A stretch of 29,091 nucleotides of DNA from a virus. Taxonomy: Duplodnaviria; Caudoviricetes. The position numbers and the translations under genes are program-made. This document shows, piece after piece, positions 3,001 to 19,095 of the stretch. Within the stretch, counting starts at the first letter, position 1. Every line of letters starts with the position of its first letter. A model generated the notes under the pieces. The model was given only the letters and a program-made list of their open reading frames with translations, was not told where the DNA came from and did no database searches. The DNA lies in the IMG/VR virus record IMGVR_UViG_3300030372_001012, positions 1 to 29,091 of that record; one strand, given 5' to 3'.

Positions 3001-4364
3001 AGTTTGGATTCTCGATTAACGAGCAAGAAAGCTCTAAAGACATTATAGAGAATATATGCAGCCAATCTAATCTATTTTTCAGGTATAGTCCTAGAGATGG
3101 ACAAGCTATTATAGATACTATAAAGCGTTCTTATTCAAATGGCGATGTAGATAAAACTATTGCAACAGATAGAATACTTAAATATTCGTTCGGTAAAACA
3201 AAGATTGATGATTTGTGTTTTGGTGGATGCACAGTTAAGTGGGGATATGATTATGGAAAAGAAGAACTAGCAAACATTACAGAATCTAAAGCTGTGTCTA
3301 GTGATTTTATTGACCAATATCTAGCTGAGTACGGAGTAGAGGACTCAGAGAAATATAAATTAGAAATAGAAGCACCATACATAAACAATCTTGCAACTGC
3401 TGAAAAGTTTAGAGATTTTATGTTTCATTTTTACAAGAACACGCATCTTACAATTAAAGCAACGCTACCAATACAAGAGGGCATAGAATTAGAGGTCGGA
3501 GATATTATAGACTTTGATAATGATATAGGAGGTTTAAAGCCTTATGGAAGTTCTATATTGAATAAATATACTTTAATAGACCAAGACATTTATCCTTATT
3601 TTTTAATTACTAGCGTTTCTAAAACATTAGACAAGGTAGATATAGAAGTTATACAGTTGCATAATTTAATTGGTGTACCAATAGTAGAGGAAGATAATAT
3701 AGATGATGATACAGGTGATGATACAGGTGATGATGTTCAGCCTGACCCTCAAGCCCCAGTTGCACATTTTGAAGGATATGCTTATGACAACAATGGTGAG
3801 AGTGCTGCCTTTCTTTATACTTATGGTGGTTATATAGTTTTTGACCCCTCTACAAGCTATGACGATGATGGTGAAATAGTAGAGAACGAGTGGGTATTAA
3901 GTGTCAAAAAAGATGGAGTTGTGGTACAAAATGGTGATGAAGATTATCCTATTGAATTATTAGAGCAAGTAGAAAATCACAATCAATCAAGTTCACTTTT
4001 AGAGCCTTTAACAATAACTCCACTCCCACATCACGCAGGACTTTCTATTGGACTAGAATTAATAGTAACTGACGATGATGGTATGACTGGTTCTATTGGT
4101 GGAGGTCAAACAGCAATAATGATACTTGCAGGGCTAGACCCTGATGCTTTACCTAATGAAGATGAAGATTATGATTTTGTTGCAGGTGATGTCAATAATG
4201 ATGGAGTGATGGACATCCTAGACATCGTAGCAGTTACACAAAATGTTTTGGGAAATACGGAGTTTACAGAAGATGAAGAAAGAAGGGCTGATATAAATGG
4301 AGATGGAATAATAGATATTTTAGATATAATATTTATGATGAATATTGTAATGGGAGAAGATTAA
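75..4364 (+). CDS. Large tail-tip/hub/central-fibre protein with an inserted carbohydrate-binding-like domain, C-terminal PKD-like domain and dockerin-type duplicated Ca-binding domain
   Basis: 1429 aa, directly after the tape measure gene on the circle (TAATG overlap). Hub-like segment ...LEVGDIIDF...ITSVSK. PKD-like APVAHF...FDPSTSYDDDGEIV..EW...LIVTDDDG. C-terminal GDVNNDGVMDILDIV...RADINGDGIIDILDII. Confidence 0.8.
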   Translation: MINLPDKIKNDLSGNLTTAEYLVAIKTDPVIYISTTKQMFQSTDGTEGYGGNLLQDSGFNANNIWELSGDAIIEDGVGKFLGLGQYSHFKIPNLLELGEEYRIKINCIEKEEPSTIRISQWEVAGDPTYEVVPENQTGVWSKTFIPDVTEDLKIYVGDGTSNWDKYATIDNVILQKLGIQPVYYEDLDLKVSNIKEKIDLKTKKIQLSSMSLSFNNFPVNDVRLSDRMGNGLGKEISVYLKTASCESIEDCVKVADLKINRYSHDKNTVKIGADDKWLESFYIDLPRTLLEKDVNTFEAYNLKPVPILYGHLENAPALPYYSDSEDYSYLTDGVKVLPDSSYLGGGSEIQGIKQWNSADGSGVRRDLEQMDDPNVLKIKLSDSLLASVPIKPYINTVDAIKELHKHAQYLTLGDHIKINIPSADPTVEFGEFDDDIGLTGLWCSSLSKMTNKKISVYTIGSIGNWIEHNDIIADEMTMKGITTGYSATTENIPNWWEDLLGIPDWNDVASFYKIGIFDLEFEQISGMDVYENEVGDELPTDVQFLGNGYVECFNYNTTIEDIGFSFFASFGLYAIYSPYQYDPLMSSINNRSYSLATPSKWDFTGLFELDVLALSNLINRNEFKVGGVASGETSSPRNYISSFNSRFLGDGNEPNTFRSRQEGLYQILNSNNVALYYTYREDTFPLGIFPSNAESTPSHSVDVKTDWSDVKLRKYWKNKDIFEKDFFVNAKGRVNGTLGNSKQINAEIAVWYESIDAPDDYTTHENKHLIELYKSLTDSSMKYKNIGGEVHEMVLRSRNPDGTYNYAFDFDVNNFYATTDISNSSGFNINPYPHFESIGSVVHYYGWIFEITAKIFGDFYSEVESGQNNMYMGGVELGYAKKNTINGTLVDFGGFTREPDEDSDGNKLFNGVNKSYYSAGDALATISGYTRLAWFKDEEDDAPNLLENPEDIIGNLINTEMNAGSVVMPAQETNMKFGFSINEQESSKDIIENICSQSNLFFRYSPRDGQAIIDTIKRSYSNGDVDKTIATDRILKYSFGKTKIDDLCFGGCTVKWGYDYGKEELANITESKAVSSDFIDQYLAEYGVEDSEKYKLEIEAPYINNLATAEKFRDFMFHFYKNTHLTIKATLPIQEGIELEVGDIIDFDNDIGGLKPYGSSILNKYTLIDQDIYPYFLITSVSKTLDKVDIEVIQLHNLIGVPIVEEDNIDDDTGDDTGDDVQPDPQAPVAHFEGYAYDNNGESAAFLYTYGGYIVFDPSTSYDDDGEIVENEWVLSVKKDGVVVQNGDEDYPIELLEQVENHNQSSSLLEPLTITPLPHHAGLSIGLELIVTDDDGMTGSIGGGQTAIMILAGLDPDALPNEDEDYDFVAGDVNNDGVMDILDIVAVTQNVLGNTEFTEDEERRADINGDGIIDILDIIFMMNIVMGED
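3705..3734 (+). repeat. 12-bp tandem repeat (GATGATACAGGT x2.5) encoding an acidic linker DDTGDDTGDD
   Basis: Directly visible; separates the hub-like region from the PKD/dockerin region. Confidence 0.85.
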
Positions 4365-6065: not shown

Positions 6066-6104
6066 TTTCCCTCCGACTACCCTATCCGTGTAGTTCGGTA
6101 TAGC

Positions 6105-6145
6105 AAAAAAGAGCCTTTACTTTAAGTAGTAAGGGCTTTTTTTTT
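6105..6145 (+). terminator. Intrinsic terminator of the late/tail operon (possibly bidirectional)
   Basis: Stem AGCCTTTAC (6112-6120) / GTAAGGGCT (6129-6137) followed by a T-run, with an A-run upstream. Confidence 0.88.
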
Positions 6146-6199: not shown

Positions 6200-6235
6200 T
6201 TGGAATTGTCAATTATTATAGCGAAGTTATCTATG
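6200..6235 (+). promoter_or_regulatory. Putative early promoter
   Basis: A-rich upstream tract, then TTGGAA(6200)-17 bp-GAAGTT, or alternatively TTGTCA(6206)-16 bp-TATCTA. Lies between the terminator and the first early gene. Confidence 0.4.
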
Positions 6236-6265
6236 TCAGACAATAAAACAAAACAGGAGAGCAAA

Positions 6266-6442
6266 ATGAACATAAATGTAAGATGCACAAAATGTGGTAA
6301 CAAACCAAACCTTATGCCTAGATGGACAGGTCAGGAGTATTTTTATATAGGTGATTGCATTACCTGTAAAGACCCACACGCAGAGTTCGTAGGCGATAAT
6401 CCTGAAACATATGAAGGAGATGACTATGCTGACTTATCATAA
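6266..6442 (+). CDS. Small zinc-ribbon protein (58 aa)
   Basis: Start moved to ATG 6266 after RBS AGGAGAG; CTKC...CITC motif. Confidence 0.7.
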   Translation: MNINVRCTKCGNKPNLMPRWTGQEYFYIGDCITCKDPHAEFVGDNPETYEGDDYADLS

Positions 6443-6599
6443 GGAACAACTATATAAAAGATTAGACGAATTAGGATTTAGTGGTAATAAGATTACTGGC
6501 TTTTTTGTAGGTGATAGATTTGCTACAATTAGATTGAGTGGTGGATTTATAATAAAGCTAGAAATAGATAGCAATGAATATCAAATAATACAATCATAG
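6426..6599 (+). CDS. Hypothetical protein (57 aa)
   Basis: Start at ATG 6426 after AAGGAG; part of the early operon. Confidence 0.6.
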   Translation: MLTYHKEQLYKRLDELGFSGNKITGFFVGDRFATIRLSGGFIIKLEIDSNEYQIIQS

Positions 6600-6607
6600 G
6601 AGAGTGT

Positions 6608-6730
6608 ATGGAATTTTTAGACGAATTATATAAATGGGAGTTAATAATTACAGCAATAATGAAGTTTTCAGTAACACTTGCAATTTGGATTTGGGTGTAT
6701 GAAAATATGATAAATGGGGGGAGAAGATAA
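6608..6730 (+). CDS. Small membrane protein (40 aa, MEFLDELYKWELIITAIMKFSVTLAIWIWVYENMINGGRR), not in the ORF track
   Basis: RBS TAGGAGAG; hydrophobic segment; stop overlaps the next ATG (TAATG). Confidence 0.7.
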   Translation: MEFLDELYKWELIITAIMKFSVTLAIWIWVYENMINGGRR

Positions 6731-7215: not shown

Positions 7216-8171
7216 TGTTAGTTTATAAAATTATTAACTTGAAAAACGACAAGGTTTATTTTTCTGCAACTAGCAAGAAGATTAATATCGCTTGGTCAAT
7301 ACAAAAGTCCGCAGCAAGGATGAACAGAAAAAAAATGAAATTAAAGGATGCTTATACAAGTAAGAGTCCGCTACACGAGGCATTAATTAATTATGGAGAG
7401 TGGAATTTTGACTATGAGGTTATTGCTCGTAATTTATCTAAAAAACAAGCATATAAATTAAAAGAGCATCTGATAAAAGAGCATAAATCAGACAATCCTA
7501 TATATGGATATAATTGCACAACTGGTGGGGAAAGCTATAAAATTAATAAGGAAACTATTAAAAAGCAGTCCGAATCCAATATGGGTAAAATTATGCCTGA
7601 ATCTTTTGTTGATATGATGAAAAAAAGAAAAGGGAAATTACATCCTTGCTACGGATATAAACATTCAAAAGAAACGAAAGAAAATATGAGGTTGGCTCAA
7701 TTAAATTCCGATTATGTTCATACACAAGAACATAAGAGAAAAATAGGTTTAGCTAGTAAAAAGGTTTGGTCTGATGAGAAGTTTAAACAAAAAATGTCAA
7801 AAAAGCGTAAAGAGATGGGGTTATGGAAGGGCAAAAACAATCCCATGTATGGAAAGAGCAGAAAAGGCAAAGACAATCCTATGTATGGTAGGATAGGAAA
7901 ATTAAATCCACAATATGGAAAAGTTCTTCCAAAAGAGCACTTTGATAAATTGCAAAAAGGCAGAATTGAATATCTTTCAAAAAGAAAATCCAAATTATTA
8001 GAAGATATAAAAAATAGAACAGAAAAAAAATGTAATAAATGTAATAAGACAAAACCATTAAATGAATATTATAAAAATTCAAGGACATTAGATTTTTTGT
8101 GTTATGTTTGTAAAAAATGTGATAAAAAAAGAAGGGTTATGTCTAGAAAACAAAAAAGGAGAGTAGTATGA
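7215..8171 (+). CDS. GIY-YIG homing-endonuclease-like protein with NUMOD3-type repeats and a C-terminal Zn finger (degenerate catalytic site)
   Basis: LVYKIINLKNDKVYFSAT...GYN; repeats HSKETKENMR and KGKNNPMYGK; C-terminal KKCNKC...CYVCKKC. Confidence 0.8.
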   Translation: MLVYKIINLKNDKVYFSATSKKINIAWSIQKSAARMNRKKMKLKDAYTSKSPLHEALINYGEWNFDYEVIARNLSKKQAYKLKEHLIKEHKSDNPIYGYNCTTGGESYKINKETIKKQSESNMGKIMPESFVDMMKKRKGKLHPCYGYKHSKETKENMRLAQLNSDYVHTQEHKRKIGLASKKVWSDEKFKQKMSKKRKEMGLWKGKNNPMYGKSRKGKDNPMYGRIGKLNPQYGKVLPKEHFDKLQKGRIEYLSKRKSKLLEDIKNRTEKKCNKCNKTKPLNEYYKNSRTLDFLCYVCKKCDKKRRVMSRKQKRRVV

Positions 8172-8422
8172 AAATAGATAAAATGACCAAAGGTAGTTGG
8201 GGTAAGATTAGAGCATATTTCAGCGTAGAGGTATCAGGTTTTACCATGAAGGGCTTTAAGCTAATAGAAGGAATGAATGGATTGTTTGCTGCACCTCCAT
8301 CACAAAAAGATGAAGATGGTAAATACAACAATACAGTATTCATAGAAAAAGAAACACTAAACACATTAACAAAGATGGCTATAAAAGAATATGGTGCTGA
8401 TAGCGGCACTATGCCTTTTTAA
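8168..8422 (+). CDS. SpoVG-family nucleic-acid binding protein
   Basis: KIRAYFSV...GFKLIEG.NGLFAAPPSQKDEDGKY matches the SpoVG-family pattern; ends in MPF. Confidence 0.8.
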   Translation: MKIDKMTKGSWGKIRAYFSVEVSGFTMKGFKLIEGMNGLFAAPPSQKDEDGKYNNTVFIEKETLNTLTKMAIKEYGADSGTMPF

Positions 8423-8423
8423 T

Positions 8424-9332
8424 ATGAATGTATTAAGCCTTTTTAATGGAATGAGTACAGGACATACCGCACTTGATAATGTTGGAATCAAGGTTGGTAA
8501 GTATTATTCATCTGAAATAAAACCTGCTGCAATAAAACTAACTCAACATCATTACCCTGATACTATTCAACTAGGAGATGTAACTAAGTGGAAAGAATGG
8601 GATATTGATTGGAAGTCAATAGATATGGTGTTGAGTGGTAGTCCGTGTCAAGATTTATCACAAGCAGGGAAGATAAGTCACAATCACCAAAAAGGATTGC
8701 AAGGCAATCGTAGTAGTCTATTTTGGGTTTTTGTGGACATTCTTAATCACATAAAGGAATTAAATCCTGATGTTTTGTTTCTTCAAGAAAATGTAGGTTC
8801 TGCACCTAAAAAAGATGTAGGAATTATGTCAAGAGCATTGGGTGTTTACCCTGCAAGAATCAACTCATCTTTGGTTACTGCTCAACTTAGAGATAGATAT
8901 TATTGGACAAATATAAGAACAAAAGAAGATGGTTTATTTGGAGATATTATATCTGATATACCACCACCAAAAAACAAGAAAATAGTTTTAAGTGATATAT
9001 TGGTTAGTGGTAGTGTGGACAGAGATAAACATACTTGTATAATGGAAGGATATATTAGAAAAAACATATTCAATATTACCCAAAAAGAATGGGAAGAATA
9101 CATACAAAAAAGACCAAAAGGTATGGTTACGATAATAACTGACAGTAATGGGTTGAGATTAGTAAATAAGATTGAAATGTGCAGATTGCAAGGATTCCAT
9201 GATAATTGGTGTGATATTTTAAGCTATAAAGAAGCAGGAAGTTTACTAGGAGATGGTTGGACATTACCAATAATAGAACACATATTTAAACACATAGGAG
9301 ATAATAATGAAAATCTACGAAGTAGCGTTTAA
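8424..9332 (+). CDS. DNA (cytosine-5) methyltransferase, orphan
   Basis: Start at ATG 8424 (MNVLSLF). Motif I LSLFNGM, IV GSPCQ, VI QENV, VIII QLRDRYYW, X LGDGW. Confidence 0.92.
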   Translation: MNVLSLFNGMSTGHTALDNVGIKVGKYYSSEIKPAAIKLTQHHYPDTIQLGDVTKWKEWDIDWKSIDMVLSGSPCQDLSQAGKISHNHQKGLQGNRSSLFWVFVDILNHIKELNPDVLFLQENVGSAPKKDVGIMSRALGVYPARINSSLVTAQLRDRYYWTNIRTKEDGLFGDIISDIPPPKNKKIVLSDILVSGSVDRDKHTCIMEGYIRKNIFNITQKEWEEYIQKRPKGMVTIITDSNGLRLVNKIEMCRLQGFHDNWCDILSYKEAGSLLGDGWTLPIIEHIFKHIGDNNENLRSSV

Positions 9333-9510
9333 AGACACAGAATCGTCAAGAACAAGAAAGAAAAGATACTTTTCAAATAGAACAGACCAAAATGGATTTA
9401 TTACAAGCCATATAGGTTCTTTATTCTCTTTTGAAAAAAAAGATTATAATATTGGTAGAAACAAATCAGACATAATTAAATTTTTAAATAAGGAAGATGA
9501 TAATGGCTAA
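9307..9510 (+). CDS. Hypothetical protein (67 aa)
   Basis: RBS AGGAG; overlaps neighbours in the operon. Confidence 0.65.
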   Translation: MKIYEVAFKDTESSRTRKKRYFSNRTDQNGFITSHIGSLFSFEKKDYNIGRNKSDIIKFLNKEDDNG

Positions 9511-9772
9511 AGAATCACAAAAAGACAAAGTTGTTAAGTGGCTAAAGTCAGGCAAAAGCCTAACACCACTTGAAGCATTACAAAATGGAATGGGTATGCG
9601 ATTGGGTGCAATTATACATACATTGCGGCACGAAGAAGAAATGGATATTGTTAATCTAAACAAGTCAGGGAAAGATAGGTTTGCTGAGTATAAACTAAAG
9701 CAAAAAGTTGAAAAACAGGAACAATCAACTTTAGATTTAGGAAATACAAGTAGATTTAAATATCCTGATTAA
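9503..9772 (+). CDS. Winged helix-turn-helix DNA-binding protein
   Basis: SLTPLEALQNGMGMRLGAIIHTLR motif typical of small phage HTH proteins; likely start ATG 9503. Confidence 0.75.
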   Translation: MAKESQKDKVVKWLKSGKSLTPLEALQNGMGMRLGAIIHTLRHEEEMDIVNLNKSGKDRFAEYKLKQKVEKQEQSTLDLGNTSRFKYPD

Positions 9773-9804
9773 TTATATTAAGTAGGTAAAAGGAGAGTCA
9801 AAAA

Positions 9805-10641
9805 ATGAGAAACAGAATACTACAAAAGACCTTTTGGACAAGTGAGTCAATACTTGAATTAGAGTTGTACGAGAGGTTGTTATTTCTAGGCATGACAAAT
9901 CACGCAGACGATGAAGGCATTATAAAAACATCACCAAAAGCACTAAAAGCAAAAGTGTTTCCTGCGGACAATATTAGCATTAATCAGATTCAAAAAGGAT
10001 TAGATAATATGCACAAATTAAGCCTAATAGAGTACAATGAAGATAGAACTCTTTGCAGGTTTGTAAATTGGACAGATTATCAAAAAATATCAAAACCGTA
10101 CCCATCTAAATTTAACTTTGTCGAGGAGAGCAAAAGCGATTCCGTGAATGGTTTGGGAATGGTTCAGGAACGTTCCGCCCCTAATAATAATAGTAATAGT
10201 AATAATAATAAGAAAAATAAAAATAAAGATAACTTGGAATTTGATGTGTGGTATGCTTTATATTCTCGTAAGATTGGAAAACCAAAAGCGGAGAAGGCAT
10301 TTAACCTTTGCTTACAGATATATGACTTAGAGGTAATAATGGATGGTACTCAGAAGTGGGTAGATTACTGGAATAACTCACATACAGAAAAAAGATATAT
10401 ACCACATCCAACTACATTCCTTAATCAGGAAAGGTTTGTAGATGAACCTGATGAGTTAGAGGTAGAAGTAGAATACAGGCTAGATAGTACAGGTTCATTC
10501 TATGTAGGATTCTGTGGTAAATGTAAGAAAAGTAATTTCTACAGGAAAGATGAATTGAAGCAAGATAGTAAATGCTGCAAGGCTAAGATACTACCAAGCA
10601 GAGATGTAAATTTAATACAAGATGTAAATGCAAAAGCATAA
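9805..10641 (+). CDS. Replication initiator / replisome organiser protein
   Basis: N-terminal RLLFLGMTNHADDEG winged helix; C-terminal FDVWY..Y.RKIGK..AEKAF and YIPHPTTFLNQERF motifs; Cys-rich tail. Confidence 0.85.
   Translation: MRNRILQKTFWTSESILELELYERLLFLGMTNHADDEGIIKTSPKALKAKVFPADNISINQIQKGLDNMHKLSLIEYNEDRTLCRFVNWTDYQKISKPYPSKFNFVEESKSDSVNGLGMVQERSAPNNNSNSNNNKKNKNKDNLEFDVWYALYSRKIGKPKAEKAFNLCLQIYDLEVIMDGTQKWVDYWNNSHTEKRYIPHPTTFLNQERFVDEPDELEVEVEYRLDSTGSFYVGFCGKCKKSNFYRKDELKQDSKCCKAKILPSRDVNLIQDVNAKA
10141..10230. promoter_or_regulatory. Putative replication origin: 11-bp iteron-like repeats plus AT-rich tract
   Basis: TCCGTGAATGG / TTTGGGAATGG / TTCAGGAACGT, then an (AAT/AGT)n AT-rich run, inside the initiator's linker region as in lambdoid origins. 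Confidence 0.55.
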
Positions 10642-10643
10642 AT

Positions 10644-10729
10644 TAAGGCGGCACTCTCACTCTCCTATGTCATTGTCTGACTCACAAAGACATACCTACA
10701 CTTACTTGCCGAATGAGGGTGCTGCTTTA
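10644..10729 (+). ncRNA. Putative structured small RNA / cis element with anti-Shine-Dalgarno segments
   Basis: 16-bp outer stem (10644-10659/10714-10729, three G-U pairs) enclosing an inner hairpin (10666-10694) and C/U-rich unpaired segments. Confidence 0.6.
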
Positions 10730-10980
10730 TGCTAGAGGTAGTAGGATATTATCTATGTTTTACTATTTTTATAATACAGCCTATTGAAGAAATACATAAT
10801 TGCAATAATCCAAATACGATAGGAAACTACCCACATATTTTTTGCGAGTGGAGTGATAAAGATTTTATAGAATATCCTGATGGAAAAAGAAGATTGCGAC
10901 CAAAGAGAAAGTTAGATAATGTTGTAAAAGCCTATTACAGAAAGAGGTATTATGAACGAAGGTATATGGAAAAGAATTAA
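10729..10980 (+). CDS. Hypothetical protein with N-terminal hydrophobic segment
   Basis: 83-aa ORF; its candidate RBS (GAGGG) lies in the 3' arm of the stem. Confidence 0.55.
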   Translation: MLEVVGYYLCFTIFIIQPIEEIHNCNNPNTIGNYPHIFCEWSDKDFIEYPDGKRRLRPKRKLDNVVKAYYRKRYYERRYMEKN

Positions 10981-11095
10981 ATATTGGAGAAGAAAGTACA
11001 AGGATAAGCCAAATGGCTATTTCGTGGCGATGATGATAGGCGAAGAATATGTAAGTGAGAAGTCAAAACAATCTCAGTCAAGGAGAGCAAAATGA
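10952..11095 (+). CDS. Small basic hypothetical protein (47 aa, MNEGIWKRIKYWRRKY...), not in the ORF track
   Basis: RBS GAGG; ATGA overlap with the next small ORF. Confidence 0.55.
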   Translation: MNEGIWKRIKYWRRKYKDKPNGYFVAMMIGEEYVSEKSKQSQSRRAK

Positions 11096-18693: not shown

Positions 18694-19095
18694 ATGCCTA
18701 GATTCGGCAAAAAGTCCAAAGAAAGATTAGCTACTTGCGATGCAAGACTACAAAAGGTATTTAATGAAGTTATCAAATTCGTGGATTGCTCAATACTCGA
18801 AGGGTACAGAGAAAAAGAAAGACAAAACCAATTATTTGACGAAGGCAAAACAAAAGTTATATACCCTAATGGTCGTCACAATAGTAATCCTAGTAGGGCT
18901 GTTGATGTTACACCTTATCCAGTAAATTGGAAAGACAGAGAAAGGCAGACATTGTTTGCAGGTTTTGTATTGGGTGTCGCTAATCAAATGGGAATTAAAC
19001 TCAGATGGGGTGGTGACTGGGATATGGACTTCGAGGTTATGGATAACAGGTTTGATGACTTTCCTCACTTTGAGTTGGATAAAAGCGAGAAGTAG
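18694..19095 (+). CDS. Endolysin, M15-family (L-Ala-D-Glu type) peptidase
   Basis: EGYR...RQ..LF, RH...AVD, WGGDW, DFPHFEL zinc-peptidase motifs. Confidence 0.9.
   Translation: MPRFGKKSKERLATCDARLQKVFNEVIKFVDCSILEGYREKERQNQLFDEGKTKVIYPNGRHNSNPSRAVDVTPYPVNWKDRERQTLFAGFVLGVANQMGIKLRWGGDWDMDFEVMDNRFDDFPHFELDKSEK

Follow-up and report, generated by a model that had tools for sequence, protein, structure and literature searches.

A stem-closed RNA element behind the replication gene in an uncultured marine phage group: a candidate antisense small RNA whose seeds change together with early and rep leaders

Small phages that depend on the host polymerase and carry no recognisable repressor must still turn their early genes off, and the locus described here raises the question of how this is done, for which it may hold a compact RNA answer. 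The window, i.e., the whole 29,091-nt stretch analysed, is a complete, circular phage genome of ~29.0 kb, whose termini overlap by 92 nt and whose virus record has direct terminal repeats. All annotated genes lie on the + strand; from 6266 onwards, the early region comprises, in this order, a homing endonuclease, a SpoVG-like gene, a DNA methylase, a winged-HTH gene, rep and RusA, and leads on to the terminase. Behind rep, a first-pass annotation of the sequence had proposed a structured RNA that is antisense to the translation-initiation regions of several phage genes, in the manner of the C4 and CI RNAs of P1/P7 and P4, in a phage with no clear protein repressor. The features of the locus are as follows:

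6105-6144: intrinsic terminator that closes the structural operon
6200-6228, + strand: predicted early promoter (-35-like element at 6200-05, 17-nt spacer, weak -10 at 6223-28)
6266-6442, + strand: first early gene
9805-10641, + strand: rep, replication initiation gene (PHROG 270, E 8.7e-25)
10644-10729, + strand: stem-closed RNA element, candidate antisense small RNA (fold z -5.2, covariation, G-U stems)
10729-10980, + strand: downstream 83-aa ORF, with an SD-like stretch (10715-19) and a start codon in or at the 3' arm of the stem

The claim that a protein regulator is lacking was overstated, since ORF 9497-9772, directly before rep, encodes a winged-HTH protein with an HTH_39 match above Pfam's curated cut-off. 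This protein and the SpoVG-like protein (8168-8422) are the only candidate regulators; SpoVG proteins are nucleic-acid binders, and the one encoded here could assist the RNA. Neither a tyrosine integrase nor an HTH_3 protein was found in any of the five near-complete genomes searched, with both searches being positive in 14/14 control genomes, which leaves the suggested immunity role unsupported. Likewise, a PHROGs scan of 25 proteins gave no match to an antirepressor. A hairpin with a T run behind it at 8390-8413, between the SpoVG-like gene and the methylase, is possibly an internal early terminator, which could gate the transcription that reaches rep and the element.

The element proved to be built as described, with all of the annotated coordinates being correct: the outer stem (10644-59/10714-29) has 16 bp, of which three are G-U, and it encloses an inner hairpin with a 7-nt loop. 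The + strand folds at -30 kcal/mol (z -5.2), a stability equalled by none of 200 shuffles, and the - strand at -26.5 (z -3.0), equalled by 1/200. In the window, the element begins 2 nt past the rep stop; neither a conserved promoter nor a conserved terminator of its own was found, and no tRNA was called. Three segments of its interior are relevant for pairing:

10660-10671, + strand: 5' anti-Shine-Dalgarno segment with extension, partly unpaired in the ensemble (matches the SD regions at 6255, 6595, 9292, 9791 and 11081)
10672-10683, + strand: specificity seed, consisting of the upper 5' arm and the loop of the inner hairpin (loop 10677-83 unpaired)
10693-10712, + strand: 3' unpaired strand, mostly unpaired, of which 7 nt pair with the rep leader

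The 10/10 match of the seed to 6235-44 is its sole copy on either strand, apart from the element itself, and lineage-specific equivalents of the seed occur in relatives. The 3' strand has a counterpart in the L039-L076 lineage that pairs more extensively with the rep leader. Within this one genome, the four claimed complementarities exist at their annotated positions, and a further one had been overlooked (9292-9301):

6235-6261, + strand: main target, leader of the first early gene (10/10 at the seed site, 6235-44, and 7/7 at the SD, 6255-61)
6595-6606, + strand: possible secondary target, RBS of the 40-aa gene at 6608 (12/12; equal binding in 36/100 shuffles)
9292-9301, + strand: possible secondary target, RBS of the gene at 9307 (10/10; equal binding in 0/100 plain and 21/100 anti-SD-fixed shuffles)
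9782-9798, + strand: second target, rep translation-initiation region (7/7 and 8/8, paired on both sides of the inner hairpin)
11051-11087, + strand: doubtful secondary target, leader of the 32-aa gene at 11092 (7/7 at 11051 and 7/7 at 11081; equal binding in 13/100 plain and 46/100 anti-SD-fixed shuffles)

Taken by themselves, these matches are marginal. A 12-nt antisense match somewhere was found for 13% of 1000 shuffled 86-mers, which places the 12/12 match, on its own, within chance, and as many 10-mer matches as observed were found for 4%. With the search limited to positions -45 to -20 of the first early gene, a 10-nt match was obtained in only 2/1000 shuffles, and this leader ranks first in that interval among the 42 called gene leaders of the genome. 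Net binding energy beat 100 dinucleotide shuffles in one of the 13 early leaders tested, that of 9307; binding was as good in 6/100 shuffles for 6266 and in 16/100 for 9805, the counts for 6608 and 11092 being those listed above, and with the anti-SD fixed no early leader fell below 17/100. In these per-gene energy tests, shuffles lack the inner hairpin and bind more freely. Pairing energies no better than those of shuffled controls had been named in the first-pass annotation as speaking against its proposal, and, with 12/13 leaders showing no advantage, this is nearly what a single genome gives. The site at 11051/11081 does not stand out from chance, and the register proposed for it is broken in the 97%-identical L037, although a shifted register survives. 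A 9-nt match at 18702 was rejected as an endolysin target, being missing in G003 and G004, both of which have the same 3' segment.

Relatives were drawn from viral and metagenome collections, and many of them bear Tara names. Terminases of cultured phages reached at most 33% identity among the best 15 of 900 records listed, and a GTDB scan for the host gave only partial matches at 14 loci and no prophage relative. The 1429-aa large tail-region ORF carries a dockerin type I domain at its C-terminal end (4182-4346); Marinimicrobia were named in 1/34 longer homologues with a dockerin domain, too weak a basis for naming a host.

Of the 66 distinct sequences located behind rep-like C-termini, the stem filter let 23 through, the window among them. 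The element directly follows the rep stop in 21/23 rep contexts with the family C-terminal tail, while in the remaining two, as well as in L019, it stands behind an inserted gene. A ~200-aa mobile gene was seen between rep and the element in L043 (8899-9516), L019 (6559-7161) and G008; in L043, its leader matches the element over 9 nt, as does that of the first early gene. Element length varies between 62 and 104 nt, with one or two inner hairpins and outer stems of 13-21 bp. The longest stem with G-U pairs allowed exceeded the longest with A-C pairs allowed in 23/23 variants, a comparison that is not blind, given that variants were chosen for G-U-allowed stems, and one which indicates that the molecule acts as RNA on the + strand. 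In an alignment of nine sequences, both sides had changed in 8/24 pairs, and 95.6% of the cells pair, with slid registers pairing at 38-48%. On all five measures, 0/500 column shuffles matched the observed covariation.

A model built from these nine sequences gave six matches in 39 sources and missed both shorter variants and those of a sister lineage, and the limits of the family were therefore set by position and architecture. A scan with a 14-base pattern returned mostly chance matches, and two pattern scans found an enclosing stem at 16/139 loci, one of them spurious (L203). No clear early-leader match was found at distant loci with stems near rep (L081, L098, L109, L118, L124 and L125, and further L028, L031, L033 and L059). 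In a more distant phage, a stem-closed element (L058, 8647-8702) has an interior that matches the SD-AUG spacer of three genes over 11, 9 and 7 nt.

The distance between the stem and the first base of the rep stop is 2-9 nt, a position that could be read as that of an element acting only in cis, be it a processing stem or a coupling switch that hides the downstream RBS until the ribosome ending rep opens it. In 10/18 distinct contexts, the 3' arm indeed contains an SD-like stretch with an adjacent start codon. However, this arrangement is missing in the other 8/18, and a cis-only element gives no account of an interior that tracks leaders 4-6 kb away, as described below; we regard it as improbable on its own, with a cis function as a second or side role being plausible.

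Element interiors differ completely between lineages. In every lineage, complementarity to a site located ~25-45 nt before the first early gene is present in a loop or in a stretch left unpaired. Across 11 genomes, the longest exact matches within the SD-free interval from -45 to -20 were 10 (window), 8, 10, 7, 11, 6, 7, 7, 10, 12 and 6 nt. In 7/11 genomes, at most 11/1000 shuffles equalled the match to the first leader, and this leader ranked first of all called leaders in 9/11. The two misses, G005 and L019, have 6-nt exact matches upstream of the SD, equalled by 185 and 226 of 1000 shuffles, and reach 10 bp if one or two G-U pairs are counted. When elements and leaders were permuted among eight lineages, a selection made by eye that includes the related G005 and L074 and is not fully independent, the true pairing with the first early leader was the best of 40,320; own matches were 10, 8, 10, 11, 6, 7, 7 and 10 nt (mean 8.6), and those of foreign elements had a mean of 4.7 and a maximum of 7. 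The corresponding value for the rep leader was 7 of 40,320. In a permutation of binding energies among seven lineages, values of 3 (first early leader) and 4 (rep leader) of 5040 were obtained; a late-gene control gave 2420 of 5040, and other early leaders, with 662 and 222 of 5040, showed weak lineage specificity.

Changes on a finer scale follow the same line. L072, L076 and G004, which belong to one lineage, differ at single loop positions, and their leaders have changed to match; departures within the duplexes of close pairs are G-U compatible (G003, G005, L019). The rep leader of G001 gave no match (4 nt). The cognate element was the single best binder in only 4/7 lineages, and the window RNA outbinds the own RNAs of G005 and L074 on the first leaders of those phages. 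Segment 10660-10712 of the window has perfect matches of 14, 11 and 10 nt to leaders in G005 (16712), L074 (5069) and G004 (25081), which are longer than the matches of the window element to its own equivalents; they may reflect mosaic ancestry or the repression of co-infecting relatives.

A sister lineage (L036, L084, L085, L087, L161, L171, L174, L175, L177 and L178), which was found later and played no part in forming the idea, differs in both stem and seed, and the leaders of its first early gene and of its rep are at or near the top rank. At most 16/1000 shuffles reached the match in 5/6 leader tests, and rep leaders ranked first in L161, L171, L174, L175 and L178; the misses were the rep interval of L084 and the rep leader of L173, with 5 nt only in the interval tested. 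As the nine-sequence model misses this lineage, it appears related by position and logic, with homology not implied.

Seeds and targets thus change together, and the first early leader and the rep leader, two of the four targets initially put forward, covary with the RNA. Judged by sequence, 6235-61 and the rep leader are the two supported targets, with the other proposed sites appearing weak. The notion of a structured + strand antisense RNA with a C4/CI-like mode is strongly supported by this covariation across lineages. Words shared in this way might otherwise be DNA operators for a phage protein, e.g., the winged-HTH protein of 9497-9772, placed at promoters and inverted behind rep; besides the HTH_39 match mentioned above, 6234-42 forms a short inverted repeat and the sites adjoin promoters. 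It is on orientation that operators fail: the match is always antisense, and the same permutation test in the sense orientation gave no signal (11,497 and 20,311 of 40,320). Furthermore, the matches are located in RNA loops enclosed by G-U-rich stems, and several distinct segments each match a different part of the leaders, all of which makes operators very improbable.

In the window and in G001, G002, G003, G004, L072, L074 and L076, the same leader is also covered by a second segment of the RNA, at the SD or the SD-AUG spacer and in most lineages 15-25 nt downstream of the seed site. This covering of the initiation region, seen in 8/11 genomes, is why we prefer repression to activation and infer that the regulation is repressive. 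Some bacterial small RNAs protect transcript 5' ends, and pairing at the best-supported site, which lies at the predicted 5' terminus, could by such protection stabilise or activate early transcripts. We give little credence to stabilisation, however, given that an RNA lying on the SD or the SD-AUG spacer, as in these eight genomes, would block initiation.

The placing of the seed sites relative to the early promoter is informative in a further respect. In a set of 17 sites, several of them near-duplicates, and with a promoter pattern defined once the sequences had been inspected (TTG-led -35, 16-18-nt spacer, -10-like hexamer), the seed site followed a promoter-like element by 4-12 nt in 16 cases and by 4-6 nt in 11, with five sites starting 8-12 nt past the -10 element. 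The same pattern precedes 5/260 other gene leaders. A first gene is expected to have a promoter anyway, and the informative part is the tight spacing, which places the seed site at about +1. The seed site in the leader is likely, to judge from this spacing, to be the 5' end of the early transcript. In the window, whose early transcript is predicted to start near 6235, the unpaired loop 10677-81 faces 6235-39, the predicted first five bases. L072 (and also G006) has ~400 nt without a called gene between two promoter-like elements (1830-2230), with a seed-site copy after each of them and the seed word of the sister lineage inside; this stretch is possibly a further non-coding RNA. An antisense promoter over the rep RBS (- strand, 9801-9772), matching 11/12 positions of the sigma-70 consensus in the window, was rejected as a family feature, its -35 being absent in the six other lineages compared.

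With the seed site so close to the promoter, the same pairing could act on transcription by capturing either the 5' end of the nascent RNA or, in the open promoter, the non-template strand, with premature termination or blocked initiation as the result. The 11/17 sites located 4-6 nt after a -10-like element lie at or just before the expected +1, the second site copy in L072 follows a promoter-like element with no gene directly behind, and termination is the mode of action described for P4 CI (PMC4825925). The second segment downstream of the seed site in most lineages, however, fits a message target, the G-U-compatible departures fit RNA-RNA pairing, and five sites begin 8-12 nt past the -10 element. 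We therefore consider action on transcription unlikely.

The reading that we hold to be probable is that of a conserved + strand stem enclosing lineage-specific seeds, which serves as a trans-acting antisense small RNA for the delayed shut-off of early and rep leaders. The RNA would be made only after early transcription has passed ~4.4 kb from the early promoter and through rep, and it would be freed from the long message, probably by cleavage at the 13-21-bp stem. Loop 10677-81 would then kiss the predicted first five bases of new early transcripts, whose free 5' end would let the message thread into the stem-closed loop; pairing would next open the upper hairpin, extending the duplex to 10 bp. 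The second segment would mask the SD or the SD-AUG spacer and keep ribosomes from loading, which would be likely to entail loss of the polycistronic message downstream, and pairing with the rep leader would limit Rep. The outcome would be an early-to-late timer combined with replication feedback, in a phage without a detected integrase or classical repressor. The targets would be unusual, namely the bases with which the phage's own early transcript is predicted to begin, and a rep leader located upstream of the RNA's own gene. Natural compensatory variants make direct tests of such a mechanism possible with short reporter constructs.

The nearest comparison is with C4 of P1/P7 (RF01695), a stem-closed RNA of ~77 nt processed from a longer transcript, in which one loop binds upstream for specificity and another occludes the RBS, and in which seed differences set related phages apart (PMC5320573, PMC12197685). 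The element resembles C4 in having a seed at -36 to -25 and an SD/spacer segment in 8/11 lineage-level genomes. However, the RF01695 model gave no match at E up to 10 in 5/5 genomes, Rfam 15 showed no family at the gathering threshold in the window or in 11 related loci, and the proposed look for c4 and CI in Rfam yielded nothing at the element in a scan of the window at E up to 5. Whereas C4 sits in an immI-type operon, targets an antirepressor message and belongs to temperate phages, the element is flanked by rep and an unannotated ORF, its supported targets, the first early leader and rep, lie 0.9-4.4 kb upstream, and no integrase or HTH_3 repressor was found in 5/5 genomes. C4 also has three stem-loops and an RNase P cut at GGW; element variants have one or two inner hairpins and no conserved GGW start. 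Both c4 and RNase P are discussed in PMC8546580 and PMC11143913, and C4-related motifs in PMC2864571 and PMC5737381.

CI of P4 derives by processing from the early transcript, with which it also pairs, and blocks the expression of replication genes (PMC4825925). The rep-leader complementarity that covaries here is comparable, with repression being predicted. In contrast, CI pairs with sequences on either side of it, seqA upstream and seqC downstream, whereas both supported targets of the element lie upstream and its downstream candidate at 11051 is unsupported; moreover, CI causes termination in lysogens. The element lies after rep. A third parallel is offered by the SAS of Cluster K mycobacteriophages, phage-specific RBS words at non-structural genes that have been proposed as sites for RNA or protein (PMC3203893). 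Phage-specific words at the RBS are common to both, but the SAS is repeated before many genes, and in the passages of that paper describing it no partner is named, whereas here two leaders are accompanied by a covarying candidate RNA. Plasmid copy-number antisense RNAs of the CopA and RNAIII type are counter-transcripts encoded opposite the rep leader. The element is similar in that loop-initiated pairing would limit Rep and seed variants would define incompatibility groups, and different in being encoded downstream on the same strand and only partly complementary.

With no model match, another locus and other targets, the element is not a member of C4 or CI. Its sequences point to an uncatalogued phage RNA family of the C4/CI kind with unusually clear covariation between RNA and target, which would carry this logic beyond the temperate phages of enterobacteria into an uncultured marine group without sign of integration. 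The lineage-specific seeds could divide co-infecting relatives into exclusion groups, which is the effect of C4 variants in P1/P7.

No paper on this element was among the literature matches listed; Fremin 2023 (PMC10690425) reports more than 10 thousand viral candidate RNAs, and the motif may be listed in the supplements to its main text. In metatranscriptomes, one run of one study covers part of the region (share 0.26), with contigs that span the rep 3' end and genes further downstream; one contig has a fold-back at 10655/10719, positions that are neighbouring partners in the stem, while a second one stops at 10650. Such a fold-back and end fit a stable stem or a cut in the stem, and were not used as support because they come from contigs of a single study whose library may contain DNA. 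In two other metatranscriptome runs, no contig over the element was found.

A second conserved non-coding element (6066-6144) lies right behind the last tail gene and consists of a 12-nt pyrimidine word, a variable hairpin and a terminator. In 6/6 complete genomes, the word is complementary to one site in the terminase large-subunit gene (13040-51 here), and it varies G/A opposite an invariant U. By its sequence, it is a candidate late antisense RNA against terminase. We would rate as rather speculative a scheme in which the whole programme is a relay of two self-made RNAs without a repressor, with the rep-side RNA recognising early promoters by the bases transcribed first and shutting them transcriptionally, through pairing with either the nascent 5' end or the strand exposed in the open promoter, and the 6066-6144 RNA then silencing the terminase message via the 12-nt match at 13040-51. 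At the terminase site, 26 distinct segments with Leu-Glu-Gly all use the same three codons, which have genome frequencies of 0.17, 0.29 and 0.34, and six segments are without the tripeptide.
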